The notes below the pieces were generated by a model that searched no databases, was not told where the DNA came from, and saw nothing but the letters and a program-made list of their open reading frames with translations. From the NCBI GenBank assembly GCA_003220075.1, contig QHRJ01000042.1:4374-46539 (forward strand): a stretch of DNA of 42,166 bases, given 5' to 3'. The DNA comes from Verrucomicrobiota bacterium. GTDB taxonomy: Bacteria; Verrucomicrobiota; Verrucomicrobiia; Chthoniobacterales; UBA10450. The translations under genes and the position numbers were made by a program. This document shows, piece by piece, positions 4,064-39,564 of the stretch (within the stretch, counting starts at the first letter, position 1; the number at the start of each line of letters is the position of its first letter).

Positions 4064-4121
4064 CTACTTTCCTAGCTGCGTTCGCCACCGTCGAGACGAA
4101 AGCGCCGCTTCGTTTTTTTAA

Positions 4122-12636: not shown

Positions 12637-12689
12637 CTAAGGGCGGGGCGAAGCGGCCAAATGCTCTGACCTTAATCGAGGAGAAAGAA

Positions 12690-12744
12690 CACAGATCGCG
12701 GGTGTCTTGGGAATGGGGGCAGGAGATCGTTCGCGAAACGCCGG
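12690..12744. repeat. dispersed copy of the repeat unit found in tandem at 33647..33744
   Basis: The sequence cacagatcgcgggtgtcttgggaatgggggcaggagatcgttcgcgaaacgccgg matches 33690..33744 at about 48 of 55 nt. It lies between the convergent rpsA and glmS genes. Confidence 0.6.
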
Positions 12745-23463: not shown

Positions 23464-24300
23464 TCACTGAGCACATTCGACCGCGTGAACCTGGACCGGC
23501 CGATCAAAACCTTTCAGAGAGACTTCGCCCAAGGGACGAAACATTAGCCCCTTTCCAATGCATAATTCCGCTACCGCGGTCGATACCAGGATTTGATCGG
23601 GTTGGGCGTGGGAACAAAGGCGTGCCGCCAGTTGAACGGTTGTTCCAAAGATATCGTTGTTTTGCTCGACTGGTTCACCGGCCGCGCCACCGATCCGAAC
23701 TTTGATATGGTGATCGCGTTCCTCTCGCTCACGCCGCGCCAACTCACGCTGGATTTGCATTGCACAACGGACCGCGGCTGCGGCTGATACAAAAGACGCC
23801 ATGATGCCATCGCCCGTGTGCTTCACTTCGCGTCCCTTCGACGCGGCCAAAGCGTCCCGCACGATGCTGTCGTGCACGCGCAAAAATTCCATCGCTATCT
23901 CGTCCCCTAACTTCTGCGTCAGTAAGGTTGAGTCGACGATGTCCGTAAATAAAACAGTTCGGATTCCGGGATCTCGCGCGTCGACTGCGCCACCGGGTAA
24001 AAGGGCTGCGCCTGCCGTATTTACTTCGCTGCCGCCGAGGAACAAATCGGCGACTTCCGGCTCAACTTGAATAATTTTTTCCGCGACCAGGCCGTGCGCT
24101 TCGCGATGGACTTGCTTGGCGGCTTCAGCAGTTGGTGCCTCGCAAAGGCAAAAGATTTTGCCGGCGCTCTCATTCACCCAGTACCTGTGATAATGAACAC
24201 CGTATTTCCCCTCGACCGCGACATCATGGGCGTGCGCCTTGGCCACTTCTTCGGCGGTGATTCCTCCCTGAATCTCGTGAATGTCCATGTATGTTGGCAT
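23464..24300 (-). CDS. DUF4242 (SCO4226-like) domain fused to a class III nucleotidyl cyclase domain
   Basis: ATG 24300 gives MPTYMDIHEIQGGITAEEVAKAHAHDVAVEGKYGVHYHRYWVNESAGKIFCLCEAP...AHGLVAEKIIQV. The cyclase part follows: VLFTDIVDSTLL, HTGDGIMASF, RIGGAAGEPV, DIFGTTVQLAARL. Confidence 0.8.
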   Translation of the reverse strand: MPTYMDIHEIQGGITAEEVAKAHAHDVAVEGKYGVHYHRYWVNESAGKIFCLCEAPTAEAAKQVHREAHGLVAEKIIQVEPEVADLFLGGSEVNTAGAALLPGGAVDARDPGIRTVLFTDIVDSTLLTQKLGDEIAMEFLRVHDSIVRDALAASKGREVKHTGDGIMASFVSAAAAVRCAMQIQRELARREREERDHHIKVRIGGAAGEPVEQNNDIFGTTVQLAARLCSHAQPDQILVSTAVAELCIGKGLMFRPLGEVSLKGFDRPVQVHAVECAQ

Positions 24301-24319
24301 CGGATCTCGCGGCGGCAAC

Positions 24320-24832
24320 CTATCCTGAGGCGAGCCGATACTCAACGTCGATCTTGGCCGGCCGACTCAATGTTTGGTAAACAACGCAGTATCGTTCCGT
24401 CAGGCGAAGCAGGGTAGCCAGTTGCTCTTCGCTCGCATCGGTGTCGAGATCGAATTGCAATCGTATCTGCTGGAAACCGACCGGTACGTCCTTCGACACT
24501 CCCAAGGTGCCGCGAAAATCGAGGTCGCCTTCGGCACGCACTATGGCATCCCGTAACCGGATACCGAGCGCGGTAGCGACCGCATTCAAAGTAACACCAG
24601 CGCATCCGACTAATGCCTCAAGCAACATATCGCCCGAGCAAGCGCTGAGACCGTCGCCACCGGTAGCGGGATGAAGCCCGGCTTCGACCGACGCCTTTCC
24701 CGTTTCTATCTTGCAGGTAACACCTTCACCAAGCCGTCCTTCGGCCCGGAGCGTGATGCGCGCTTTCTCTGGTTCCTGCCGGTATTGCTGCTTCACCGGC
24801 GCTTGCAAGGATCTTAGTTCCTCGGCATTCAT
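24320..24832 (-). CDS. OsmC/Ohr-family peroxiredoxin-like protein
   Basis: The 170-aa protein has the OsmC pattern with two Cys residues (GLSACSGDMLLEALVGCAG). Confidence 0.85.
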   Translation of the reverse strand: MNAEELRSLQAPVKQQYRQEPEKARITLRAEGRLGEGVTCKIETGKASVEAGLHPATGGDGLSACSGDMLLEALVGCAGVTLNAVATALGIRLRDAIVRAEGDLDFRGTLGVSKDVPVGFQQIRLQFDLDTDASEEQLATLLRLTERYCVVYQTLSRPAKIDVEYRLASG

Positions 24833-24929: not shown

Positions 24930-26251
24930 CTATGCAGAAACAGCCGAGCCTTTCTTGCTCGGCTTTATGTTTTGGTTCACTCGGAAAAGGTTATCGGGAT
25001 CATATTTATTCTTGATCTGAACTAATCGCTGATAGTTATCTCCATAAGTCGCCTTCACTCGTTCTTCTCCTTCATCCATCATAAAGTTTACGTAAGCTCC
25101 CCCGGCAGAGTATGGGTGCAGCGCGTCCCAATAACTTTTGGTCCAGGAAATAGTCTTGTCGTTGTTGGCCGGATCGGGATCGACTCCGACCATGACTTGA
25201 GTCCAGGTTGCATCGCGGTAATTCCACGCCGTTTCGTGTTTGCCGACGCGCCCAGCCGCTCCGTTGATTGGATAAAGATGCATGGTGGAGTGCATCGATG
25301 GTAGCGCCTTGCCAAATTTAATATGTTCGGCAATCGCTTCGTCGCTTAGTTCCTTCACAAAGTCCGCGCGCCAGTACCACTGCAATCCCGGCGGATAAAT
25401 CCCATCGAACCTTGCGGCAAACTACCGGTCCATGTCCAGACGACACCGCACATCTTTTTCAGATGAAGGTGCTCGGGAAAGGGGGCTGCCGGGGGCACCG
25501 TGAGAAAAGCGAACCAACCATTCAGGTCGTCGGGCGCGGTCTTAATTAGATCGCGATACCATTTCATCACCTCGGCCGCTTCCCTTAGTTCATATAACAT
25601 TGGCCCGCCATAAATCGTACCGATCGGATGCAACTTGAAGGTAAACGAAGTTACTACCCCGAAGTTCCCGCCGCCGCCGCGAATGGCCCAGAACAAATCA
25701 GAGTTTTCCTCTGCATTCGCTTTGACAAAGCTTCCGTCCGCCAGGACCAGATCAGCTGAAATCATGTTGTCGATGGTTAGTCCGCACTTGCGGGTTAGAT
25801 GTCCAATTCCTCCACCGAGAGTTAATCCACCAACACCGGTCGTCGAAATAATTCCGCTGGGAGTAGCGAGGCCGAAGGCATGAGTGGCATGATCGACATC
25901 GCCCCAGGTGCATCCGCCGCCCACGGTTACAAGGCGCGCCCCCGGATCGACCCGTGCATATTTGATCAGCCCGAGATCAATCACTAAGCCGTCATCGCAA
26001 ATTCCCAGTCCGCCGCCGTTATGGCCTCCGCTACGGACGGCAAGAAGCAGATCATGTTTTCTGGCAAAGTTTACGCAGTCGATTACATCCGCCGCGTCCG
26101 CGCAACGCGCGATCAAGCGCGGCTTCTTGTCGATCATCGCATTGTAGACTTTGCGGGCATCATCGTAATCGCGGTCGTGCGGCTCGATCACGTGGCCTCT
26201 CAACTTTGCCTTTAATTCAGCGATGGAATTCTCTTCGAGTGCTTTCTTCAT
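24930..26251 (-). pseudogene. FAD-linked oxidase (FAD_binding_4 + BBE-like C-terminus) split by an internal deletion/frameshift
   Basis: The N-terminal ORF 25355..26251 has RSGGHNGGG and GGGNFGVVTSF. The C-terminal ORF 24930..25385 has QWYWRADF and NYQRLVQIKNKYDPDNLFRVNQNI. The frames change at 25410..25424, and about 25-30 residues normally found between ..CxWTG and ..FDGxYPxG are missing. Confidence 0.75.
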
Positions 26252-26407
26252 GGAAGACTCAATAAAGAGTCGGGCGAGCGCTATTCAAGCGAACATAATG
26301 TCGAGAGCCTTGAGAAAAGGAGACCGAAGTCAGATAAGTAATGGAGGGACACGCGCTGTCGTGTCCCAAATATTGGGCGCCGACGGCGCGGCGCCCTCCA
26401 CCGGGGG

Positions 26408-28335
26408 CTAGTCGCCGTTCGCACTTGCGGGTAGCGCGATGCTAACCGCAGTGCCGCTCGTGCTGGTATCGATGTCAACACGACCGTTGTGATCGAACAC
26501 GGTCCGCTTGACGATCGGCAGACCCAGTCCCATGCCGCGCGCTTTTGTCGTCTGGCGCGGCCGCCTTCGTGAATCGGCTTGGCCGAAAGTGTGATCTTCG
26601 GTTTTTTCTGCTCGGTGACGGCTTCGGCCGCGTTCGCGACCAGATGCGCCACCGCTTCGGCCAGCGCCCCTTCATCGCCAAGAATCTTTGGCAAATTGGC
26701 AGGCAGTTCCGTTTCCACCGCCACGCCGCCGTTGACCCGAAATTTGCTGCGCGCAAGCTCGAGCCCGCGCTTTACCGGGGTGCGAATATCCAGCGGTCTC
26801 ATCTTCAATTCCGGCGGATGAGCGAAAGCATTGATCTGGGTAATGATCTTATCGAGACGATCGATTTCCTGAACGACGATCTGGTTGAAATTTTTTCGGA
26901 ACTCCGGATCATCGAAACGCTCGGGCAAAAGTTGCGCGAAAGTCTTAATCGCGACGAGTGGATTGCGAATTTCGTGCGACATACTCGCGGCCAAGTCCGT
27001 CCAAAAGGCGGCGCGATCGACCAGGTCTTGCTTTTGCCGCAAATTTTCCTCCACGGTCAGATCGTGAACGACGGCGACGGCACCGAGGGGAGTTTGCTGG
27101 TCGAGGAGTCGCCGCGCTTCGACCGAGAGGGAGCGGCGTGTGTTCGGATCGATCCACTGCCGCGGAGGAAGATTCGACTTTGCCCCAAGAGTTTCCCGCA
27201 ACATGATGGCCAGCCTTCGACCAACGGCTTCAATCGGCCGGTTGAGCGCATCGGAAGTTTTCAGCCCGAGGATCGATTCCGCGGGGGGATTAAACCAGCG
27301 AGTGATGCCTTCTTCATCAATGGCAACGATTCCCGGTGGGATCGATTTCAGGAGCGTTTCGGCCAGGGTTTTTTGCAGTGTGACCTCTTCGTAGAGAAGC
27401 GCGTTCTCGAGAACGGTGGAAACATGCTCGGCCAGGATCATCAGGCCTTCGAGATCACCGTAATCAAAGGGTAAACCGGTGATGCGATGGCCGAAAAACA
27501 GCCAGCCGATAATCTGGCCACGTGCATAAAGAGGGACGATAACCTCGGCGCCAACGCTATCGAGCGCCCGACGCAAGAGCGGCCGCTGATTTTGCGCGGC
27601 GATGTGTGCGAGGTTGGCGCGAGAAACGAGGTGCCCATGTAATTCGAACCAGCGGACCAGCGGATCGCGCTCGTTGTACTCGATCTCGTTAGTTTCTGGC
27701 AGGCAGCGCAGCCCGGCACGCAGGCGATAGCGATCTCCCTGACGCATGCGCGAAAAAATTCCAACGCGGGTCACGCCGGCGGCGTCCGCCACTCCTTCAA
27801 CGATGCTGGCGAGCAATCCTTCGACATTATCCAGGCTCCGAAAGACACGAGGGAAACGCAGCAGCGGCAGCGATGGCGCGTGCGCACGCTCCAGCACTGG
27901 CTCGGCCCGGCGGGGCTGTTCCGCTGAAGGACGATAATGCGATTGTTCGCGCAGGTCGCGATTCTCCTGCATGACCTTTAGGTGATCGAAGGCGCGGCCG
28001 ACCAGGGTTTGAAAACGGTGACGGTCGAGCTGCAAATCTTCCGCCGCATAAATGTCGGATTGTTCGGCCTCGCGCAGCGGTTCGGAGCGAGGGGCGCCAA
28101 GAGCGATGACGAGCGATTCCGGCCAATCCTGTTCGAGTTGCTCGAGCAAGTCGCGGCATTCTTTTGCTCGCAGATCCATTAAAATTACCGCGGGCGAATT
28201 CTGTTGCAGCACGGCTTCCATCCGATTGGGGTCAGTGAGGTGGCGAACCAGTGCCATCGTGCGGAGAAAAGCTTTGACCCGTCGCGCCAGCTCAGCGTCC
28301 TGGGTATAGAGAATGCAAATGGGAGCGGCGCTCAT
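26408..28335 (-). pseudogene. REC-like / GAF / PAS / HisKA / HATPase sensor kinase with a broken ATPase domain
   Basis: The H-box is SHEIRNPLVAIKTFAQLLPERF and the N-box is HLVANAAEAV. After ...KPIHEGG (about 26560) the frame shifts. The real tail TTKARGMGLGLPIVKRTVFDHNGRVDIDTSTSGTAVSIALP...* continues in another frame to a stop at 26408. The G1 (DxGxG) segment is absent. The track ORF runs out of frame to 26281. Confidence 0.65.
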
Positions 28336-30747
28336 GCGGCCACCACTCCCTGATCAAAATGCACCAGCGGCAGAAAAATGTGAAAGACACTTCCCTTGGC
28401 TACCTCGCTTTCAACTTCGATTTGTCCGCCATGTTCCTCGATAATTCCGTGCACCACAGAAAGGCCGAGACCGGTTCCGAAATCTTTCGTCGTGAAAAAC
28501 GGATCGAACACCCGGGCAATATCCTCCCTTTTTATCCCCTCACCGGTATCGCGAATGGAAATGCATAGCGCTTCATGCCGCTTCTCGTCCGCCGGCAAAA
28601 GGTGCGTCACGAGAGAATCACCGGTCCGGATTTCGGTCTCCACCGTGAGCTCGCCGCCGCGTTTCATCGCATCCATGGCATTAAGGAAAAAATTGAGAAA
28701 AACCTGTTCCATTTGATCTGAGTCGGCCCGGATAGTATCGAGGCTTGCCTCCAACGTCCGGGTGAGTTTGATCTCCTTTTGATTCAACCGATGTTGAACG
28801 AGTTGAAAGGTTTTCTCCAGTACTTCGTGCACATGCATCGGCCGGAGCAACGGTTTTGCCGGGCGTGCAAACCGGAGCAGCTGATTGACCAGTGAATCGA
28901 TCCGATCAATCTCGTGCACGATTAAGCTGGAAAAGGTGTCGCGGAAATCAGACTCGTGGTAGCGCTCTGGTAAGAGCTGAGCAAAAGTCTTGATAGAAAC
29001 CAGCGGGTTCTTAATCTCATGCGCCATTCCGGCTGAGAGCGTCCCGAGGCTGGCGAGGCGATCGCTGCGACGAATTTGCAGCTCGAGCCGTTTCAGCGCG
29101 GTGATGTCGGTCACCACCATCAGCGCGCCCAGGAGCTCGCCGCCTTGACCGCGAAAAGTTGCGCTGCTAGCGCGCGCAAATGTGCTTCCCGCCGCGGCCC
29201 GCAATTCGACTTCCCGGTCTTCCTGGCGCTCCCCCGAAGTCAAAGTAGTCTGAATGATGTCACGCAAGGGTGCGGGCAGATCGTCAACCATTCGTTCTCC
29301 GCCGTTGGTATTCAAGCCGGCTATTTGCGCCGCTTCCTGAGGTGAATAGCTCGGCGTTTTCAATGGCGACGGCAAGTTGACCGCCCAACACCTGAAGCGC
29401 GCTCTGTTCAGTACCGCCATAAACGCGGCCGGAGAGCCTTGGCCCGAGAAGCATGATGCCCACGAGGTGCTCGCGTGAGAGAATCCCGACCGCAGCCGCA
29501 GCCCCGGCTGCTTCCAGCTGGCGGCGAATGGCAAAGGTCGTTGCGGTTCCACGAACGCGGTGAAGCTCTTCGAGGATGAGCGGTTCGTGATGAGCGGTCA
29601 ACCATTGCACCAAGGGCTCCTCCTCCTTGAATTGATCAACTATCCCAGGTAAACTGGAAAGCGGATAGCTTTTTCGAAAAACTTTACGCTGCGCGAGGTA
29701 GATCGTTACGCTATCAGTGCCGACAGCCTCACCAATCGTCGTAGCAAATCTGCGCAACAAGTCCGGCAAGGTAGTTACCGATTCCAGGATGGCCGCCGCC
29801 TTGCTAACGGTGGCACGAAAATCGATTCCACGGCCACCGACAAAAAGACGATCGGCTAACCTTTGAGAGAAGCCACGCGCCGGCGCCATGGCGAAGGTGA
29901 CGACCAAAGCTGCCGCGATGTGGGCAAAAGTGCGATCGGTTGAATAAAAAAGAGAGACTGTTACCTGGGCTACAAGCCACCAAACCGCTCCGTAAAGGGC
30001 AAGTAAGTATGTTGTGAGGACCCCGTAAGAAATCGCGCGCCGCAGAAAGAGGCCAACGTCCATGATCTTTCGCGTGGAAATCCCATAGGCGATGATCAGT
30101 GTGAATAGGACGGCTCGAAGTGGCGCAAACCAAAACAACTGAGAGGGTGGGACGAAGAACCGTAATATCTGGTAGGCGCCGAGAGTAAGAACCAGGATGA
30201 AAGTAGGGCCGAGTAAAAGGTAGCCGAGTTCCGATCGAATCCTACCGGAGCTATTCCTAAGATCGCGCAGAGAAGCGACAAGAAGAACAACCAGGGCACT
30301 CCCGAAACAGCAACCATAAAGATAGACACCCCAGCCATAGATCGGCTGTGGTGCGGCTCCGGGTTGATCAGGGAAGCGTGCTCCCTTCAAGAGAAGATTT
30401 GACTGACAGAAAATGATGAGGGCGAGAGCCAGGATGATCCATCCACGGGAGTGACGAAGGACATCTCGCCAAGTCGCGTCCGGCATGACCGTAAAAAGCC
30501 GGAGGAAGTTTAACGCTAATAAAATGAGGACAGCGGCAGCAAATGCTACTCGCATGTTTGTTGCAACAAATGCTAGATCGTGGCTAGTCGAACCAAAGTA
30601 GAGACTTGCCAGCCAGCAAATCATGGCGATCGACAGGATGAGGAAACTTTGGGTCGCCTTGCGATGGCGATTGGTGATGAAAACAGCGAACCCCACCGCC
30701 GCCTGGATCATTAACGCCCCAAGAATCGGGACTGCTTGACTGTTCAT
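28332..30747 (-). pseudogene. multi-TM / GAF / (PAS) / HisKA / HATPase sensor kinase split by an internal deletion/frameshift
   Basis: ORF 29284..30867 (true ATG 30747, MNSQAVPILGALMIQ) encodes about 8 TM helices plus a GAF domain ending in AIENAELFT. ORF 28332..29552 carries the rest: EAAQIAGL..., AHEIKNPLVSIKTFAQLLPERY, and an intact HATPase (DTGEGI, GTGLGL). The junction is at 29337..29345, and the first third of the PAS domain is missing. Confidence 0.65.
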
Positions 30748-31997
30748 TAGCAAAATACGCGATCCATCACCAACGAGCTGGCGCTTCCCCCGAGACCGCG
30801 CACATTCAAAAGCGCCTGGTGCACTTTGGCTTTGCGCGCGCGCAGCGGAACAACATCGAGATCGCAATCAGGATCGGCGGTCTGATAATTTGCCGTGGGA
30901 GGGATTAGTTGATCACGGATCGTTAGGGCACAGGCTGCGATTTGGAGCGGCCCTGCCGCGGCTAATGGATTCCCAGTGACGCCTTTGATGGAGCTAATCG
31001 GAATAGAATAGGCGTAGGGGCCAAATACCTCTTTGATAAATCGAATCTCGGCTGCGTCTAATATCGGATCTCCAGGTCCGTAGGCCGATATGTAATCGAT
31101 TTGGCTCTTTTCGCAGCGTGCGTTTGCCAATGCCATCTCCATGGAGCTGCGCAGGCCAGATCCATACTGAGCCGGCTCAAGATCGCGTTGGGCGGCATAA
31201 CCAGTTAGTTCGAGGTAAACATGTGCTCCTCGCGCTTCCGCCCGTTCCAGGTTTTCCAGCACGAACATTCCAGCACCTTCTGCCAGGACACCGGATTCCC
31301 GGTTTAAATCGAACGGTTTACTTGCACTTTCCGGATCTCCATTATGCGGGACCGTTAGACCGCTAGCTATAAAAGCCGCTACGGTATGAGGAGTTAAGGG
31401 CGCATCAGCCCCGCCGGCGATGGCGAGTTCGGCTTCTCCCGTGCGAATTGTCATGGCTGCGCTGGCAACGGCATCCAAGCCAGATGGACAGGCCGTTGAC
31501 ACTGTCGCCGCATGCGCACGCACGCCAATTCGATCTGCAATGGCATTAGCAGCGGCCTGCGGCTTCAATGCAGAAATCGCCGTCGGCGACATGCCGCGAA
31601 AACCGTGCCGGTCGAAATCGCTAATTGATCGTTCGATAATGTCCATCGCACTGGTGCTCACTCCAACGACAACCGGAGTGGGGCTCGGTAAATCTGCATC
31701 GTTAATCTCCAAGCCCGCGTCTTTCAGTGCCATCATTGTCGCGGCATAGGCGAACTGGGTATGACGTGCCATTCGCTTCGGCTTAAGTTCTGGCTCGATA
31801 TATTCAAATGGATCAAAATTCTTCACTTCCCCGGCGATTTGGCTTTTCAAATTGCTGGCGTCGAAAAGTGTGATTCGGCCAATGCCGCTACGGCCTTGGA
31901 GAAGCGAATCCCAGAATGCTTCCAATCCGACCCCATTCGGGGCGAGAACCCCCATCCCGGTGATGACGACGCGGTTTTGCTTAATCATAGCGCGCAC
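30747..31997 (-). CDS. FabF-like beta-ketoacyl synthase homologue with a non-canonical active site (Cys-Tyr-Asn)
   Basis: It matches KAS II over its full length: VVITGMGVLAPNG, STAC(170)PSG, the thiolase-fold C-terminus. AHGTxT is replaced by AY(306)GPGD, and GHxxGAAG by GN(343)PLAAAG. Confidence 0.85.
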   Translation of the reverse strand: MRAMIKQNRVVITGMGVLAPNGVGLEAFWDSLLQGRSGIGRITLFDASNLKSQIAGEVKNFDPFEYIEPELKPKRMARHTQFAYAATMMALKDAGLEINDADLPSPTPVVVGVSTSAMDIIERSISDFDRHGFRGMSPTAISALKPQAAANAIADRIGVRAHAATVSTACPSGLDAVASAAMTIRTGEAELAIAGGADAPLTPHTVAAFIASGLTVPHNGDPESASKPFDLNRESGVLAEGAGMFVLENLERAEARGAHVYLELTGYAAQRDLEPAQYGSGLRSSMEMALANARCEKSQIDYISAYGPGDPILDAAEIRFIKEVFGPYAYSIPISSIKGVTGNPLAAAGPLQIAACALTIRDQLIPPTANYQTADPDCDLDVVPLRARKAKVHQALLNVRGLGGSASSLVMDRVFC

Positions 31998-32160
31998 CAG
32001 CCGACGAAGAACCTGATCCGTCCAAAGGTTGGTTTAGACGAGTCGCGAAAAAGTTTAGCGCTGAAAGCAAACGAAGCTCTGGCATGCATTAAAGAGCCAA
32101 ATTCTAATGTCCCCACTAAATGCAGTCATTATATTTTCCATCCCCTGTGCCCCGCTGCAC

Positions 32161-32188
32161 TTATTCACAATTTTTCAGTTATTCACAA
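32161..32188. promoter_or_regulatory. direct repeat TTATTCACAA x2 in the divergent KS-operon / REC-HK intergenic region
   Basis: There are exact 10-mers at 32161..32170 and 32179..32188 (18-nt period) in an AT-rich patch. This is a candidate regulator binding site and rests on inference only. Confidence 0.3.
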
Positions 32189-32303
32189 GATCGATCTTGC
32201 GCGCCGTCTGTTTTTGTTTAACCCTCCGCCAAGCCCGCAATTGTTTCAGCCCGCGATAATTCACATTGAATACGGCACGCCCCTAGCTCTAAATCCGCCC
32301 ACA

Positions 32304-33464
32304 GTGCACATCTCCGCTGCTCCCGATCCTGCCAAGGTTCTCATCATCGATGATGAAATCGGACCACGCGAAAGCCTGCGCATGCTGCTCAAGCCTAGCT
32401 ATCAGGTCCATACGGCGGAAAACGTCGAGACGGGCCTGCAACTCTTACAGGAAAAGCGCCCTGATACCATCGTAATGGATATTCGCATGCCCGGAATGAA
32501 CGGTATTGATGGCTTGCGCAGGATCCGCGAAATCGATCCGCATCTTTCCGTGATCATGTTCACCGGTTTCGGCGCGCTCGAGACCGCCCAGGAAGCGCTC
32601 CGGCTCGGCGCTAACGATTATATCAACAAACCTTTTGACGCTGTGCAGATGCGCGAAGTGATCGGCCGCAACGTCGAGCGAACCCGTGTGCAGCGGCAAA
32701 GCGAGACGACCGCGCACGAACTGCAAGAACTAAACGAGCGCCTTCGCAACGAGCTCGCCCAAAAAGAACGCCTCGCTTCTCTCGGGCAGGCGTCGGCTGA
32801 ATTTGTGCACGATCTGAGTAATCCACTCACGATCGTCTGGGGTTACGTTCAAATTTTGGCCAAGAAATTGGAGCAATCTGGTGATGGGAATAACGGCGAA
32901 CGCAACGCGAGCTCATCCAGAGAATTGCACATTATCGAACAAAACGTGCGGCTTTGCCGTGAGCTTCTGACGATGTGGCAAAGCTACGGCAGGGTGGGTG
33001 CCATCAAACCGAAACCAATCTCGATGTCCAGCATCGTCCAGGATGTCGGCCAGAGCGTCACCGGCATGGCATCGCAAAACGGTGTCCAACTGGACTGCCA
33101 TATTGCCGAAGAAGAATTGACAGTTCTGGGCGATCCGACGCAGCTGACGCGCGCATTGCAGAACGTCATTGTAAATGCCATCCAGGCCGCAACCGAGAAA
33201 CATGGCAAGGTTGTGGTGAATTGCCGGGAGAAGGATCTTTACGCCGACATCCAGGTGCGAGACACCGGGTACGGAATTGCGGAGGACGAAATTGGAAAAA
33301 TCTTCGAGCCCTATTTCACTACCAAGCAGGGGAAAAATGGCACCGGTCTTGGGCTCTACATCACGAAAAAAGTAATCGACGACCACAAAGGATCGATCGA
33401 CGTGGCCAGCACCCTGGGAGTTGGAACGACCTTCACGCTGCGGCTGCCGCTGCACGATAAGTAA
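32304..33464 (+). CDS. hybrid response regulator-histidine kinase (REC-HisKA-HATPase)
   Basis: The REC domain has VLIIDDEIGPRE, IVMDIRMPGMNG and GANDYINKPF. The H-box is FVHDLSNPL. The HATPase boxes are NVIVNAIQA, DTGYGI and GTGLGL. The first ~180 codons of the 31761..33464 track ORF overlap the KS gene antisense. GTG 32304 is the first plausible start. Confidence 0.8.
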   Translation: MHISAAPDPAKVLIIDDEIGPRESLRMLLKPSYQVHTAENVETGLQLLQEKRPDTIVMDIRMPGMNGIDGLRRIREIDPHLSVIMFTGFGALETAQEALRLGANDYINKPFDAVQMREVIGRNVERTRVQRQSETTAHELQELNERLRNELAQKERLASLGQASAEFVHDLSNPLTIVWGYVQILAKKLEQSGDGNNGERNASSSRELHIIEQNVRLCRELLTMWQSYGRVGAIKPKPISMSSIVQDVGQSVTGMASQNGVQLDCHIAEEELTVLGDPTQLTRALQNVIVNAIQAATEKHGKVVVNCREKDLYADIQVRDTGYGIAEDEIGKIFEPYFTTKQGKNGTGLGLYITKKVIDDHKGSIDVASTLGVGTTFTLRLPLHDK

Positions 33465-33646
33465 GCTATAGTGGGTTCTCGGCGGGGGCCCGCGCCTGCT
33501 CCAATCTGATTTGGATCGGAAATCAGGATTCAAAGACGCGAACCTGCTTAGCGCAATCCTTAAAGGTTTGGATGCGGAATGTTCGATGCTTCGTACTAAT
33601 GAACCCGACGCCCTTACCTCAATTCTCTCCCTGACGCAGGGGAGGA

Positions 33647-33744
33647 CACAGGTCGTGGGTGCCTTTGGAAATCAGAGTGGGAGACCGTACACAGGTCGCG
33701 GGTGTCTTGGGAATCAGGGCAGGAGACCGTAAGCGAAGCGCCGG
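33647..33744. repeat. two tandem 42-43-nt repeat units plus shared flank
   Basis: Unit 1 is cacaggtcgtgggtgcctttggaaatcagagtgggagaccgta (33647..33689). Unit 2 is cacaggtcgcgggtgtcttgggaatcagggcaggagaccgta (33690..33731). Unit 2 plus its flank is repeated at 12690..12744. Confidence 0.65.
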
Positions 33745-36342
33745 GTGAGGGTCCTCTGGTTGTCGGAAGGCTGCGTCGCCTCCGGCCGCGCCGCGGGATA
33801 TCGAACTTACTTGCGGTGCTACCAATTCGTCGCACCGCAAAACCGCCCAAGTTGTCACGTAACAAAATACAAACCGCTTGTCAGGCCGCGACAGTTTCGT
33901 TTTGCTGCGAGCGTGTCCTCTGCCTACCGGATCGCTTCGCCGTTTTTAATTCGACTGGCCGGAGTTCCCTTTGATGTTCTTGAGGAGCTTGCGACGCCAA
34001 ACGCGTGCGCCGTCGCGCGCGATCTAATTGCGCAGGAAAAAGAACTCCACCACCTCAAAAGCGCTGCTCTGGAATTTGTCACTCGTCGCGATAGCGGTCT
34101 TAGCTCTGAAGAGTTCGCGGCCTGGCGCACTGCCATTCGTCGCGATAAAATTCCCGAGCAGAAAATTCCGCAACCGCTTCAAGAATACACGCGGGTTGCG
34201 ACCGCCGCCGAACGGGCACGCTCGCTGTTGGAACATCAGCTTCAAGAGGAATTGAGCCGAGCACGTCGCGCCTTGTTGCAAACAAGTCAGCGGATTCTTC
34301 CACGCTATCTCGTCTTCGGCTCGGGTCAGGTTCATCACCTCATCGATCACTCCGCCGGCGAGCTTCCCCCTCGCAACAGCCGCACCCGCGAACGTGAACG
34401 TCACCTTCTGCTCTACCTCCAGCGTATCGCGGCCAAGAACGATACCTTTAGCGAATTCGGTCCTTCCGCCTGGGGTTCGGCCAGTCAAAGTGGTTCCGCG
34501 CTAAATTTTGAACCGCGTCCGGGCATGGCGCGCCGCGAAGTTTTTCTGGAACGCTGGACGGCGCATGCTATCGCCGCAGCGATCAATTCCGATCCGCAAA
34601 CTTTTTCGGAGCACCGGCCGCGCCTCAATCCAATTGGCCTTCTCATCGGGAATCGTTTCGTCTTTGTGGATAGCGGCGACGTGATCGATCTTGCGCCCTC
34701 GGAAATAGAAATTATCGCACGGTGCAATGGCGCAACGCCCATACACGCGCTGATCCAGTCCACCAATGGAAACCAGTCTGCTGCAGCGCCCATCAGCGGA
34801 GAGCTCGATGTCATTCGCGGTTTGATCGATAAAAAGATCCTGATCGCTGCGCTGGAAGTTCCGGCGCTCGAACCCTTCGCCTTCCAGATTTTGCACGACG
34901 ATATCGCGGCCTGGCGCGAGGGAGCGGCGCGTCAGCGTTGGCTGCCGCTTGCTGATTCACTGGTTAAGTCCGCCGCGGATTTTTCAGGAACAACCGAGCC
35001 GACTCAGCGCCAACAAATTTTTTCCGCAGCGCGCCAGCAGCTTTCTCAGGTCGGCGCGGAACGCAAACCAGGTCAGCGCTCGCTTTATGCCGCAGTCAAT
35101 CCAATCGCGGAAGAATGTTTCCGCGATTGCAGATTCGAAATCAGCGAAACTCTTCTCGACGAAGTCGTAACCGACACGGAACCCTGGATCGATTTTTGGC
35201 GCGATAATTATGCTTTTGTCGCGTCGCGCGTTGCCGCCGGTTTGCGCATGGTATTGGAAAAGGTTGGAAAAAATACGCTGCCGCTGCCCGCGTTTTTGCG
35301 CGCCTGCGAAACAGCGAAGCTTCCATTGACCGGTCCAGGTCTCGTTGGCCTGGCCGTGATGGCGTTTCAGGAAATTAAAGTCGCCTTTCGCGAACGACTG
35401 AACCCGCACGGCCACCTCGCCGAGTATGAACTCACCGCCGCCGATTGCCACTTCGTGCGCGAAAATTTTTCCTACCAGAAATTTGACGAATTCACTTTTC
35501 CTTCCGGCGATTTACAACTTGCGGCCAAATCGCAGGACGCGATTTTGCGCGGCGAATATCGCTGGATCCTAAGCGAGCTGCATCCGGCTGCCGCTACCTT
35601 GCATCATTGTATGTACTGGAGTTGCCCCGATCACACCGCCCTTTCCCGTGCGCTTCAACTAAGCACGAGCGGCAAACCATTTTTTCATTTCGGTTTTTTC
35701 GCGGCCGATTTTACCGCCCATACTACGGTGCGGATTTTCGATGCCCTACCCCAGCAGGCGGTCTTCGCTGCGCCGCAGCGCGGTAATCCGCGATGGCACT
35801 CCGTTTCACCAGCGCACGCTGAAGTTTTTATCGAGCAAGATGGCGACGTCGCGCTTCGCGCCAATGGCCAATATCTCGGGTCCTTTGCCCGCAATTGGAT
35901 CATTCCACTTGGGTTTCATCCCTTCCAATTTGGGTCGGCGCCGCATACACCGCGCCTCCGTTGCGGGCGCGTTATTGTCCAGCGCCGCAGCTGGTCGGTC
36001 TCCAGCGAGGAAATGGGCGATGGAAATTTCGCTGGCCTTTCGCGTGAACTGGTTCTCGCCATTGAAAGATTGCGAGCCGCCAAAGATTGGCCCCGCTTCG
36101 TTTACATTCGCCCGACTGAACAGGCGTTGCGACGGAGTGGCGCGGAAGGTCGCGACAAAGATACCAAACCAGTTTTCATCGATCTCGAGAGTTATCTTTT
36201 CCTCGAAATTTTTCATCGCTGGCTGAGTAAAGCCGGTGAGTTGGAAATAACAGAAATGTTGCCCGCGCCTGAAGAACTTTGGTGGCACGAAGCCGATGGC
36301 CGTCGCACTTTCGAGCTGCGCACGCTGATGGTGCCGCGATAA
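33745..36342 (+). CDS. lantibiotic-dehydratase (LanB) family protein with the glutamylation domain only (small LanB / PEARL-like)
   Basis: Motifs are YRIASPFLIRLAGVPFDVLEEL, YLQRIAAKNDTFSEFGPSAWG (34414..34476), TPRLRCGRVIVQRRSWSV and PRFVYIRP...PVFIDLESYLFLEIF. The protein ends where the SpaB_C elimination domain would begin. The start is uncertain; GTG 33913 (VSSAYRIASPF) is plausible. Confidence 0.7.
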   Translation: MRVLWLSEGCVASGRAAGYRTYLRCYQFVAPQNRPSCHVTKYKPLVRPRQFRFAASVSSAYRIASPFLIRLAGVPFDVLEELATPNACAVARDLIAQEKELHHLKSAALEFVTRRDSGLSSEEFAAWRTAIRRDKIPEQKIPQPLQEYTRVATAAERARSLLEHQLQEELSRARRALLQTSQRILPRYLVFGSGQVHHLIDHSAGELPPRNSRTRERERHLLLYLQRIAAKNDTFSEFGPSAWGSASQSGSALNFEPRPGMARREVFLERWTAHAIAAAINSDPQTFSEHRPRLNPIGLLIGNRFVFVDSGDVIDLAPSEIEIIARCNGATPIHALIQSTNGNQSAAAPISGELDVIRGLIDKKILIAALEVPALEPFAFQILHDDIAAWREGAARQRWLPLADSLVKSAADFSGTTEPTQRQQIFSAARQQLSQVGAERKPGQRSLYAAVNPIAEECFRDCRFEISETLLDEVVTDTEPWIDFWRDNYAFVASRVAAGLRMVLEKVGKNTLPLPAFLRACETAKLPLTGPGLVGLAVMAFQEIKVAFRERLNPHGHLAEYELTAADCHFVRENFSYQKFDEFTFPSGDLQLAAKSQDAILRGEYRWILSELHPAAATLHHCMYWSCPDHTALSRALQLSTSGKPFFHFGFFAADFTAHTTVRIFDALPQQAVFAAPQRGNPRWHSVSPAHAEVFIEQDGDVALRANGQYLGSFARNWIIPLGFHPFQFGSAPHTPRLRCGRVIVQRRSWSVSSEEMGDGNFAGLSRELVLAIERLRAAKDWPRFVYIRPTEQALRRSGAEGRDKDTKPVFIDLESYLFLEIFHRWLSKAGELEITEMLPAPEELWWHEADGRRTFELRTLMVPR

Positions 36343-36381
36343 CTCCGTGAAATTCTCGCTATCAGATAGAAAAAGGGGAGC

Positions 36382-36493
36382 GCGGGCGTCTTGCCCGCTT
36401 TGTCCGGCATCCTGCCGGACAGTCTTCTTTAATGATCGGTCAAGAAGATCCGCAGGCGAGACGCGTGCGGCCCCCACAGACAAGATGCCTGTG
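36382..36493. repeat. cluster of three GC-rich hairpins (REP-like) between the LanB-like gene and parA
   Basis: The hairpins are GCGGGCgtcttGCCCGC (36382..36398), GTCCGGCAtccTGCCGGAC (36402..36420) and CACAGACAagaTGCCTGTG (36475..36493). Confidence 0.45.
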
Positions 36494-36504
36494 CCACGTC
36501 GCAA

Positions 36505-37305
36505 ATGAAAATCATCGCCATCGCGAATCAAAAAGGCGGCGTCGGCAAAACTACCACCGCGGTGAATCTCGGGGCTGCGCTGGCGGAACGTGCGCAACGC
36601 ATTCTGCTCATTGATCTCGACCCACAGGGCAATGCCACCAGCTCGCTCGGAATGCAGGACTTCGAAGGAGAAAGCCTATACGATCCTTTGCTGGGCGAGA
36701 CGACCCTTGCTAACAAAATTTTGCCGACGCGATTGGATCACCTCTTTCTCGTTCCAGCCGATCTCGATCTTGCCGGCGCGGAAGTGGAAATTGCACGGAT
36801 GCCGGATCATTTGCTCCGGCTGGCGCGAACATTGCAACCGTTGCGGGCCGACAGCGCCTTCGATTTTGTGCTGCTCGATTGTCCGCCTTCACTTGGAATT
36901 CTCATGAGCAACGCGCTCGCAGCGGCCGATGAAATTCTGACCCCGATTCAATGCGAATACTTCGCGCTGGAAGGTCTGGTCAAAATTGTGCGCGTGGTCG
37001 AGCAAGTGCGTGATTCGGGAGCAAATCCGAATGTTGAAATCGGCGGCATCCTCATGACGATGTTTGATAGTCGCACGAATTTGAGCGCACAGGTGGTGAC
37101 GGAAGTGCGCCAACATTTTGCCGCAAGAGTTTACGACACCGTTATTCCGCGGACGGTGCGCTTAAGCGAAGCGCCCAGCTTCGGCAAAACCATTCTGGAA
37201 TACGACAAAACCGGCGCCGGCGCCCGCGCCTACCGTGCTTTGGCGGACGAATTCATCCGGCGTCACGCGCCAGTTGCCGCCACCGCCGAAAAAGGTGAGG
37301 CCTGA
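36505..37305 (+). CDS. parA: ParA/Soj-type partition ATPase
   Basis: The protein has MKIIAIANQKGGVGKTTTAVNLGAALA (deviant Walker A), IDLDPQGNAT and VLLDCPPSLG, and is 266 aa. Confidence 0.9.
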   Translation: MKIIAIANQKGGVGKTTTAVNLGAALAERAQRILLIDLDPQGNATSSLGMQDFEGESLYDPLLGETTLANKILPTRLDHLFLVPADLDLAGAEVEIARMPDHLLRLARTLQPLRADSAFDFVLLDCPPSLGILMSNALAAADEILTPIQCEYFALEGLVKIVRVVEQVRDSGANPNVEIGGILMTMFDSRTNLSAQVVTEVRQHFAARVYDTVIPRTVRLSEAPSFGKTILEYDKTGAGARAYRALADEFIRRHAPVAATAEKGEA

Positions 37306-37421
37306 TCCTTCGCTCTGTTAGAAAGCGCCAGAGGACTGGCGCAGTCCAAGACGCTTCGCGAATTGGGACGCTTCAAAACATGCGCCAGCTTTGGAGTGGG
37401 GCAGCCCTCTGCCGCACCCAC

Positions 37422-37952
37422 TCATTCGGCCTCACCTCGGAGCTTCATCCACTGCTTCCGCGTAATAGCGAAGACGAATGTAGGAAAACCTCTGAAAGTG
37501 GTTTCCCTTTCTAAGGTCATTCCATTTTTCTCCGCCACTCGACGCGATGCCTGATTATCGGGATGGATCAACGAAATCAGGTACTCTAGTTTCAAATCGC
37601 GAACGCCATGATCGCGGACCGCGCGCGCTGCTTCGGTAGCAAGTCCGCGGTTCCAAAAATCCCGCTGCAGCCGATAACCGATCTCAATTTCCATTTTGCC
37701 GTCGACTTCATGATGAAAGAAACCGCAGTAGCCAGCGAGCGTGCCGCTCGACCGCACAATCATGGCGAATTGTGATGGCAAACCATCTCGGTTCCAGCCG
37801 ATCACTTTATCGAGAAAACCCTGCACTTGTTCTCGCTTCATCGGGCCCATCGAGAAACGCATGAAATCTTTGTCCGCCATCAATTCCCCCATCCGATCGA
37901 GATCATCGGCGGCGAATGGGCGCAGAATTAAACGCGGAGTTTCCAGGATCAT
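37422..37952 (-). CDS. GNAT-family N-acetyltransferase (RimJ/RimL-like)
   Basis: The protein has TPRLILRPFAADDL and IEIGYRLQRDFWNRGLATEAARAV (acetyl-CoA motif A), and is 176 aa. Confidence 0.85.
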   Translation of the reverse strand: MILETPRLILRPFAADDLDRMGELMADKDFMRFSMGPMKREQVQGFLDKVIGWNRDGLPSQFAMIVRSSGTLAGYCGFFHHEVDGKMEIEIGYRLQRDFWNRGLATEAARAVRDHGVRDLKLEYLISLIHPDNQASRRVAEKNGMTLERETTFRGFPTFVFAITRKQWMKLRGEAE

Positions 37953-39491: not shown

Positions 39492-39564
39492 GGGGGTATA
39501 GCTCAGTTGGTAGAGCGTCTCGTTCGCAATGAGAAGGCCAGGGGTTCGAATCCCCTTACCTCCA
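39492..39564 (+). tRNA. tRNA-Ala (anticodon CGC)
   Basis: A manual cloverleaf fold works: acceptor GGGGGTA/TACCTCC with the G3:U70 Ala identity pair, D arm GCTC-AGTTGGTA-GAGC, anticodon arm TCTCG-TTCGCAA-TGAGA, T arm AGGGG-TTCGAAT-CCCCT. CCA is not encoded. Confidence 0.9.

Follow-up and report, generated by a model that had tools for sequence, protein, structure and literature searches.

A ketosynthase-like gene ahead of two sensor kinases

The stretch of DNA analysed here, 42,166 nucleotides of contig QHRJ01000042.1 from a Verrucomicrobiota bacterium of the order Chthoniobacterales (hereafter the window), carries on its reverse strand a gene for a ketosynthase-like protein (KS) with the fold of FabF, in which both catalytic histidines of that enzyme are replaced. 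Genes for two histidine kinases follow it with overlapping stop and start codons, and genes for a third kinase, a LanB-like protein and a ParA-like ATPase run divergently from the same intergenic region. An earlier note, made from the sequence alone, had drawn attention to this arrangement and suggested a role in sensing or transferring an acyl ligand.

The KS open reading frame (ORF) spans 30747..31997(-), and its longest reading, from a GTG at 31997, gives 416 amino acid residues. Homologues (120 sequences) are only 412-414 residues long, so the true start is probably the ATG at 31988, which gives a gene at 30747..31988(-), a protein of 413 residues and the numbering C167/Y303/K335/N340. Its description as a protein of FabF fold with a Cys-Tyr-Lys-Asn active site draws on Pfam, FabF structures, the 120 homologues and an AlphaFold2 (AF2) model. 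Both Pfam ketoacyl-synt domains are matched (E 2e-47 for the N-terminal and 7e-23 for the C-terminal domain). As the earlier note had claimed, the alignment with FabF runs from end to end: crystal structures of FabF cover the full length of the KS in a phmmer search of the PDB (top match 4ls5, E 3e-81). The AF2 model has a TM-score of 0.78 to Bacillus subtilis FabF (4ls8) in Foldseek. Since the confidence of the AF2 models is moderate to low (pLDDT 66 for the KS and 62 for the LanB-like protein), they served for fold assignment only and not for active-site geometry.

The active site was mapped with phmmer against the PDB, with a MAFFT alignment of Escherichia coli FabF and the 120 homologues, and with a hidden Markov model (HMM) alignment, and all three agree. 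In the 416-residue numbering, Cys170 corresponds to C163 of FabF, Tyr306 to H303, Lys338 to K335, Asn343 to H340 and Leu402 to the gate residue F400. HMMER aligns 'staCpsg' with the catalytic Cys of FabF, 'isaYgpgd' with 'inaHgtst' and 'kgvtgNplaaag' with 'ksmtgHllgaag', and the motif AYGPGD stands where FabF-type enzymes have AHGTST. The acyl-accepting Cys is retained (codon 31488..31490, reverse strand, as for the other residues), and Tyr (31080..31082) and Asn (30969..30971) take the places of His303 and His340; the codon coordinates given for all three in the earlier note are exact. Misplacement of Tyr and Asn by a faulty alignment was considered and is ruled out by the concordance of the three alignments. 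In gating loop 1 the motif N-V-R-G-L (30792..30806) replaces N-S-F-G-F of FabF, which puts Arg at F398 and Leu at the gate F400. Positions below follow E. coli FabF.

In databases the proteins of this kind go under the names '3-oxoacyl-ACP synthase II' or 'beta-ketoacyl-ACP synthase family protein' (ACP, acyl carrier protein). The window KS reaches 363.6 bits with the NCBIfam fabF equivalog TIGR03150, below its cut-off of 493.75, and it stays under the cut-off of every other NCBIfam beta-ketoacyl-ACP synthase (KAS) model too. No NCBIfam model covers the family, and no KAS III/FabH model is found among the 25 best NCBIfam matches listed for the window KS, all of them sub-cut-off. The protein lacks the His of the KAS III Cys-His-Asn triad, and sister clades with Cys-His-Lys-Asn at positions 163, 303, 335 and 340 (C-H-K-N) sit on a KAS II scaffold.

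The KS stop codon overlaps the start codon of kinase 1 (TAATG, 30745..30749), and the stop codon of kinase 1 overlaps the start codon of kinase 2 (ATGA, 28332..28335); both overlaps can be read in the sequence where the earlier note had placed them. The two GAF/PAS kinases that it described are recognizable by their domains and are coupled as it said, but both are frameshifted and kinase 1 is not one ORF. Four relatives that are 90-97% identical over the block (L004, L006, L007 and L011), all of them without these deletions, served as the reference. Relative to these, the window lacks 98 bp at ~29341 (29341..29348), between GAF and PAS of kinase 1; 79 bp at 26551/26552, where part of the ATPase domain of kinase 2 is gone; and 88 bp at 25410, in a downstream FAD/BBE oxidase gene (24930..26251). 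None of these lengths is divisible by three, and each deletion therefore shifts the frame. The reading frame of kinase 1 is broken into two ORFs that overlap (29284..30867 and 28332..29552). Its 5' part (29284..30747(-), ATG 30747..30745) encodes a HisKA_7TM-like membrane domain and GAF, as judged by Pfam and the L004 orthologue, and its 3' part (28332..29348(-)), in another frame after the 98-bp deletion, encodes the rest of PAS, HisKA and HATPase_c. Kinase 2 (26408..28335(-), ATG 28335..28333) comprises REC-like, GAF, PAS, HisKA and truncated HATPase_c domains. Its in-frame stop lies near 26408; position 26281, where the earlier note had ended it, is an out-of-frame stop.

Both kinases are intact in L004, and their genes are intact (839 and 668 residues) in L006, L007 and L011 as well. 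In L004, kinase 1 (839 residues) has HisKA_7TM-like, GAF, PAS, HisKA and HATPase_c domains and kinase 2 (668 residues) has REC-like, GAF, PAS, HisKA and HATPase_c domains. L004 kinase 1 scores 27.4 bits with HisKA_7TM (PF16927; cut-off 28.6) over profile positions 6-222 of 224, and kinases of relatives score 36-63 bits (highest 62.9). The N-terminus of kinase 2 matches true receiver (REC) domains with an hhalign probability of 93% (E 3e-7); the Asp is aligned, and the acidic pair and the Lys are lacking. The kinases are of the NtrB/AtoS/ZraS type.

The three deletions may be real decay or assembly errors. Taken as decay, they would make the locus a functionless, dying operon, of which the KS substitutions and the broken kinases would be parts, and the frameshifts in both kinases and in the downstream oxidase gene are what such a process would leave. 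The KS, however, is intact and 72-97% identical over dozens of species with invariant key residues, and neither kinase is broken in any of the four closest relatives that were examined. The gaps of 79-98 bp are clean and fall within 4 kb, beside intact KS, REC-kinase, LanB-like and ParA-like genes, and may equally be assembly error. We give this explanation scarcely any credence.

Conservation of the altered site and of the kinase linkage

Together with its 120 listed homologues, which come from soil and other metagenomes, the window KS forms a family of 121 sequences; they are 72-95% identical, and the few members with a named source are Verrucomicrobia. Identity of the window KS to E. coli FabF is about 36%. 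Cys, Tyr, Lys and Asn occupy the four catalytic positions in all 121 sequences, Arg at 398 is likewise invariant (121/121), and the gate position is always Leu or Ile (F400L/I, 121/121). The family further differs from E. coli FabF by T305P, T307H/D, E349Q, N404A, I108T and F133A, by a four-residue deletion in gating loop 2 (A266-M269), and by changes in the ACP-docking surface (K65E, R127N/K/D, K128G and R206G). Residues kept include Cys163, Lys335, D265, D311, E314, F202 and the Gly residues of loop 1 (GxGG). In FabF, loop 1 (GFGG, 399-402, with gate Phe400, and Asn404) and loop 2 (265-275) gate the access of acyl-ACP, and two electrostatic regions, K65/R68/K69 and R127/K128/R206, bind AcpP (Mindrebo et al., PMC7138838).

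By these alignments, the acyl-accepting half of the site is preserved, and the half concerned with malonyl-ACP, phosphopantetheine and the gate is systematically altered. The substitutions support the view that the window KS is not an ordinary chain-elongating FabF. The possibility that it is a pseudogene was considered and is ruled out by key residues that are invariant in 121/121 sequences at 72-95% identity. The role beyond elongation that the earlier note had put forward is supported in part: the site is non-FabF (both His, Phe400, Thr305/Thr307, part of loop 2 and docking region 2 are affected), and the protein may sense, transfer or synthesise a ligand.

A wider clade was found by searching representatives of 50%-identity clusters. 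Its members nearest to the family are 40-50% identical and mostly C-H-K-N; some are C-W-K-N, C-H-K-Q/C/S or C-N-R-H, and sister clades have His or Trp at position 303. Among 32 representatives of this clade, C163, K335, D311 and E314 are invariant, and H340N (29/32), E349Q (31/32), T305P (25/32) and the loop-2 deletion (25/32) are widespread. Position 398, which is Arg in the Chthoniobacterales family, carries a new His in 30 of the 32. Positions 303 and 398 appear to switch as a pair, from His/His to Tyr/Arg in the Chthoniobacterales family: kinase-linked KS with His303 have His398, and Tyr303 (or Ser303) goes with Arg398, which suggests that 303 and 398 may work together. Because the clade has gained a conserved His or Arg at 398, the site is rebuilt and not merely crippled, and this coherent set of derived residues argues that a new site is under selection and has not decayed. 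In a neighbour-joining tree (no bootstrap), most non-canonical KS lie apart from the canonical FabF group, and the C-Y-K-N family is nested among them, beside the representatives P0121 and P0127.

The linkage to kinases extends over the same clade. We looked up ten non-canonical representatives, one of which (L060) lies on a contig too short to inform; in the remaining 9/9 the next gene encodes a HisKA_7TM-type kinase, and the usual companions are a second kinase, an NtrC-type sigma-54 regulator and a divergently encoded FadL/TodX channel. The comparison set consisted of all 14 full-length canonical C-H-K-H loci at <=44% identity (Frankia, Chloroflexi, Actinomycetota and others), and in these module neighbours occur in 0/14 and acpP lies immediately upstream in 7/14. 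The difference between 9/9 and 0/14 corresponds to a Fisher's exact value of ~1e-6, for samples that are phylogenetically non-independent. The fullest related modules are those of L068 (a Kiritimatiellae metagenome-assembled genome, MAG), L065 and L058. In these, a FadL/TodX-type outer-membrane channel and then a REC-kinase are encoded on the divergent side, and the KS, a 7TM kinase, a second kinase and an NtrC-type sigma-54 activator (in L065 a REC-HTH_8 regulator) on the forward side. An NtrC-type regulator adjoins the module in L058, L061, L064 and L068. The proteins of L058 and L004 are similarly distant from one another throughout (49% identity for the KS, 45% for kinase 1, 49% for kinase 2 and 50% for the REC-kinase), and therefore the KS, the two kinases and the REC-kinase have diverged together. 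On this distribution, the linkage to kinases predates Tyr303, and the KS clade occurs in PVC (Planctomycetes-Verrucomicrobia-Chlamydiae) bacteria of soil and water, namely Verrucomicrobiota and Kiritimatiellae.

Some of these modules have additional genes, namely an O-methyltransferase in L058 and a FAD_binding_4 oxidase in L058 (1497..3110) and in L061 (2301..3896). The two oxidases share 41% identity; the lineage of the window has a different, BBE-type FAD oxidase after kinase 2 (the gene at 24930..26251). The C-H-K-Q module of L064 encodes, between the 7TM kinase and the NtrC-type regulator, a 515-residue protein that combines a Sigma54_activat AAA+ domain with HisKA (4080..5627).

Closer to the window, a single scan of species-representative genomes identified ~38 Chthoniobacterales (Verrucomicrobiota) MAGs with a KS orthologue at 60-97% identity, and gene order was surveyed by tblastn with six proteins of locus L001. 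Wherever the flanks allow, these ~38 species have the REC-kinase, LanB-like and ParA-like genes on one strand and the KS, kinase 1 and kinase 2 genes on the other. The stop of the KS and the start of kinase 1 overlap by 1-10 nt in 39/45 loci, and those of kinase 1 and kinase 2 overlap in 37/41 (by 4 nt in 35 and by 17 nt in two). The KS-kinase arrangement of the window is thus kept in related genomes, both in these species and in the modules of the wider clade. The absence of nearby ACP, acyltransferase, ketoreductase, dehydratase and enoylreductase genes, which the earlier note had also remarked on, holds for the whole window: none was detected in Pfam scans of ORFs of at least 150 residues, and tblastn with E. 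coli AcpP was empty. The same Pfam scans detected no NtrC-type regulator (REC, Sigma54_activat, HTH_8) in the window.

A divergent but otherwise ordinary condensing enzyme, making a specialised fatty acid or lipid and merely encoded in one operon with kinases in control of envelope or lipid metabolism, would account for the full-length FabF fold and for the retention of Cys, Lys335 and the GxGG loop. It would also suit the LpxD and aldolase genes that often come after the kinases in Chthoniobacterales, and C-H-N triads are known to support condensation in KAS III. Such an enzyme, however, would have lost both His, Thr305/Thr307, the gate Phe400 and part of loop 2, would score under every NCBIfam KAS cut-off and, in contrast to the canonical loci, would have no acpP or fab neighbour. 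The kinase linkage moreover lasts across orders and phyla, and the downstream housekeeping genes do not. We regard this possibility as very unlikely.

The divergent operon and its control region

The first gene on the opposite strand encodes a REC-HisKA-HATPase kinase of 386 residues (32304..33464(+), GTG start at 32304; domains by Pfam), with orthologues in every locus with enough flank, including the distant modules L058, L065 and L068. It is separated from the KS by 315 bp (31989..32303), so that the shared region of roughly 300 bp from which a REC-kinase hybrid gene had been said to diverge is confirmed by measurement. We aligned 38 distinct KS/REC-kinase intergenic regions. Toward the KS, a sigma-70-like promoter, ATGACT-17 nt-TAGAAT, is apparent on the reverse strand (-35 at 32124..32129, -10 at 32101..32106). 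Two GTGAATAA repeats, which here read TTATTCAC, lie at 32161..32168 and 32179..32186, followed by a palindrome, CAAGATCGATCTTG (CAAG-N6-CTTG), at 32186..32199. Toward the REC-kinase, a sigma-54-like element, CGGCACGCCCCTAGCT, lies at 32273..32288(+); it fits GG-N10-GC (-24/-12; compare TGGCACG-N4-TTGCW). This element is present in 38/38 distinct regions, 15-25 nt ahead of the annotated start. The other intergenic motifs are not universal; at least two GTGAATAA-like copies are found in 29/39 regions. In L068 a closer sigma-54 match, TGGCACGCGTTCTGCT, is located 59 nt upstream of the FadL/TodX gene.

Two other explanations of the intergenic region were examined. A riboswitch or known RNA finds no support, as Rfam gave no match in the 315 bp even at E <=1, and neither does a conserved small ORF, as the KS-proximal part is unalignable between species. 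Because of the promoter motifs, the NtrB/AtoS/ZraS type of the kinases and the NtrC-type regulators adjacent to the module in relatives, the arrangement suggests that the KS-kinase operon may be a sensing arm and the divergent operon its sigma-54-dependent target.

The REC-kinase gene is followed by a gene for a split-LanB-like protein of ~809 residues (33913..36342(+)), a homologue of glutamylation domains without an elimination domain, and by the last gene of the operon, which encodes an orphan ParA/MinD-like ATPase of 266 residues (36505..37305(+); Pfam AAA_31, E 7e-56). Both genes are specific to Chthoniobacterales and occupy the slot of the FadL/TodX channel of the relatives. The LanB-like protein matches Pfam Lant_dehydr_N with 54 bits (cut-off 28) and the profile of TbtB (6ec7) with E 1e-5. 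The top Foldseek matches of its model are TbtB, MibB, NisB, MadB and GodF (E 6e-9), accompanied by matches resembling a RiPP recognition element (RRE). Pfam scans of the window did not detect Lant_dehydr_C, the elimination domain, and no conserved precursor-peptide ORF was seen near the LanB-like gene, which in L006 and L011 is flanked by gaps of just 8-9 bp.

These homologies raise the possibility of a natural-product cluster, in which the KS would lipidate or extend a ribosomal peptide processed by the LanB-like enzyme and the kinases would regulate the pathway. The likeness to the glutamylation domains of TbtB and NisB, the RRE-like region and the position of the gene inside the conserved Chthoniobacterales block are what such a cluster would show. 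The lack of a conserved precursor ORF, together with the 8-9 bp gaps, the lack of an elimination domain, cyclase, ACP, acyltransferase or transporter, and the related modules, which keep the KS and both kinases with a FadL/TodX channel replacing the LanB-like and ParA-like genes, speak against it, and very little weight can be given to this explanation.

Extra intergenic DNA occurs in the window at 33468..33876 (409 bp), 36339..36504 (166 bp) and 37287..37448 (162 bp), where L006 and L011 have gaps of 5-9 bp, except for the third gap in L011, which measures 86 bp. The first insert contains two tandem units of ~44 bp, and 56 bp within it (33689..33744) recur at 12689..12744 with 87.5% identity, suggestive of a small dispersed repeat. 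Elsewhere, three proteins with adenylate/guanylate-cyclase domains are encoded on the reverse strand (1619..4063, 4122..6473 and 23464..24345); two of them are tandem paralogues with TPR repeats and one carries a fused SCO4226-like nickel-responsive domain. A tRNA gene is located at 39492..39564(+) (Rfam RF00005, 72.8 bits), and the part of the window past it (39.3-42.2 kb) contains short ORFs only and no clear ORF-rich region.

A proposed signalling role and known systems

We propose that the KS, derived from a ketosynthase but no longer elongating, is the subunit through which a sigma-54 two-component system handles an acyl or other hydrophobic ligand, a reading that we hold with about even confidence. 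The KS, the 7TM-GAF-PAS kinase and the pseudo-REC-GAF-PAS kinase would constitute one translationally coupled operon with the KS first, and this operon and the divergent one, with its sigma-54-type promoter, would act as a single signalling module. We infer that the protein no longer elongates fatty acids and serves as a ligand-handling subunit. Either its Cys would be acylated or its pocket would bind a lipid or hydrophobic compound, and the state of the KS would control the kinases, in a manner likened to PII acting on NtrB. The tight codon overlaps would suit proteins with a joint function, perhaps assembled into a complex in which the KS contacts a kinase. Across orthologous modules position 303 is His, Tyr or Trp, and therefore a function shared by them cannot need acid/base chemistry there. 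Channels of the FadL/TodX family carry hydrophobic compounds, and their presence in related modules would suit a ligand of acyl or hydrophobic nature. Any acyl-enzyme would have a long life, because the condensation half-reaction would be disabled; FabF K335A with covalently bound dodecanoate (PDB 2GFY) illustrates that such adducts can persist.

A more specific version of this proposal is a covalent acyl sensor. Here the Cys would be acylated with slow turnover, because the decarboxylation machinery is gone, and its state would be read by the 7TM and the soluble kinase, which would set a sigma-54 output for the uptake of hydrophobic compounds. We offer this version tentatively and consider it doubtful.

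Several observations weigh against a ligand-handling, non-elongating subunit. In Chthoniobacterales no NtrC-type regulator is adjacent to the module, and in the window itself both kinases are frameshifted. R68 and K69 remain basic (R68K, K69R), so ACP-docking region 1 is partly kept. Confidence in the AF2 models is low (pLDDT 62-66). In its C-H-K-N form, taken as the parent arrangement, the site is similar to that of KAS III and chalcone synthase, Cys-His-Asn enzymes that do catalyse decarboxylative condensation, and because of this resemblance the loss of condensation is not proven clade-wide. Finally, the Cys together with the newly fixed His or Arg could point to real catalysis, and the protein could in that case be an enzyme, such as a synthase, instead of a sensor.

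This last point leads to the main rival, a signal synthase paired with its receptor, as in CqsA/CqsS, RpfF/RpfC, PhcB/PhcS and PpyS/PluR. The KS would make a hydrophobic autoinducer, which would pass the outer membrane through FadL/TodX and be sensed by the 7TM kinase. The retention of Cys, Lys and Asn and the conserved new His/Arg398 point to an active enzyme, a multi-TM (transmembrane) sensor domain suits a membrane-soluble ligand, and an O-methyltransferase and FAD oxidases stand beside the module in some relatives; adjacent genes for synthase and receptor are common in such systems. On the other side, His, Tyr or Trp at 303 means that catalysis cannot rest on acid/base chemistry there, conservation does not extend to any ACP, ligase or other partner in biosynthesis, and FadL/TodX channels are known for uptake. 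The KS also lies outside the operon that sigma-54 would induce, and the positive feedback usual for a synthase is therefore missing. We judge this rival unlikely, though it deserves to be taken seriously.

If the KS is a ligand-handling subunit, the KS fold would have a signalling role, inherited as a unit with sensor kinases in Verrucomicrobiota and Kiritimatiellae, and the protein would supply the input to a multikinase sigma-54 pathway, so far uncharacterised, in bacteria that rank among the most abundant of the soil. A covalent acyl sensor would in addition be a two-component co-sensor of a new class and would make the KS the first ketosynthase with a part in signalling. The system offers a testable handle on bacterial sensing of fatty-acyl or hydrophobic compounds, namely the Cys, Tyr/Arg versus His/His at 303/398, and the 7TM kinase. 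For annotation, it is a warning: of the proteins that databases list as '3-oxoacyl-ACP synthase II', thousands are probably something other than fatty-acid synthases.

We found no description of the KS-kinase module in the literature searched (full text), where matches to HisKA_7TM were censuses and reviews of archaeal and eukaryotic two-component systems. With FabF/KAS II the window KS shares fold and length, and FabF is its best PDB match by sequence and by structure; it differs by Tyr and Asn in place of His303 and His340, by an altered gate, loop 2 and docking surface, and by kinases where FabF loci have acpP and fab neighbours. The KS0 domains of trans-AT polyketide synthases (PKS; AT, acyltransferase) keep the Cys and have lost the His of the HGTGT motif, and are expected to be acylable but unable to condense decarboxylatively. 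The window KS likewise keeps the Cys and has lost the motif His. KS0 domains, however, lie within PKS modules, have ACP domains for neighbours and hand chains on within an assembly line, whereas the window KS is a stand-alone protein of 413 residues, ACP and PKS being absent both from the window and from related loci, and it has lost the second His too. The chain-length factor (CLF, KS-beta) and KSQ also combine a KS fold with an altered catalytic set and a non-condensing role, as is predicted for the window KS. In these, the Cys is replaced by Gln and a KS-alpha partner is adjacent; in the window KS, the Cys is kept, the His are lost and the next gene is a kinase, not a partner KS. CLF-like ORFs with Q, A or R at the Cys position occur in L040, L044 and L045. 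To our knowledge, the known non-condensing relatives of ketosynthases (CLF and KS0) all act inside biosynthetic machines.

On the regulatory side, the NtrB/AtoS/ZraS-type kinases, the sigma-54-like promoter and the NtrC-type activators of relatives resemble the NtrB/NtrC system with PII. As with PII-NtrB and the 'trigger enzymes', a soluble, putatively metabolite-binding protein would be co-encoded with a kinase; here, however, the accessory protein is a homologue of condensing enzymes, there are three kinases, and any contact with them is putative. TodX with TodS/TodT and TbuX with the sigma-54 activator TbuT offer a parallel to the FadL/TodX channel that in relatives is divergent from the regulators, with a sigma-54-type element ahead of it. 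No KS-like gene is known in those systems, where the sensors themselves bind aromatic compounds, and the lineage of the window has the LanB-like and ParA-like genes in the place of the channel. CqsA/CqsS, RpfF/RpfC and PhcB/PhcS likewise consist of an enzyme that uses acyl thioesters encoded beside a multi-TM histidine kinase; their enzymes belong to other families, and the window KS lacks residues needed for the normal chemistry of its own. The parts of the module, a KS fold, KS0- and CLF-like departures from it, an NtrB/NtrC-type system and an accessory sensor, are familiar, but their combination is not.

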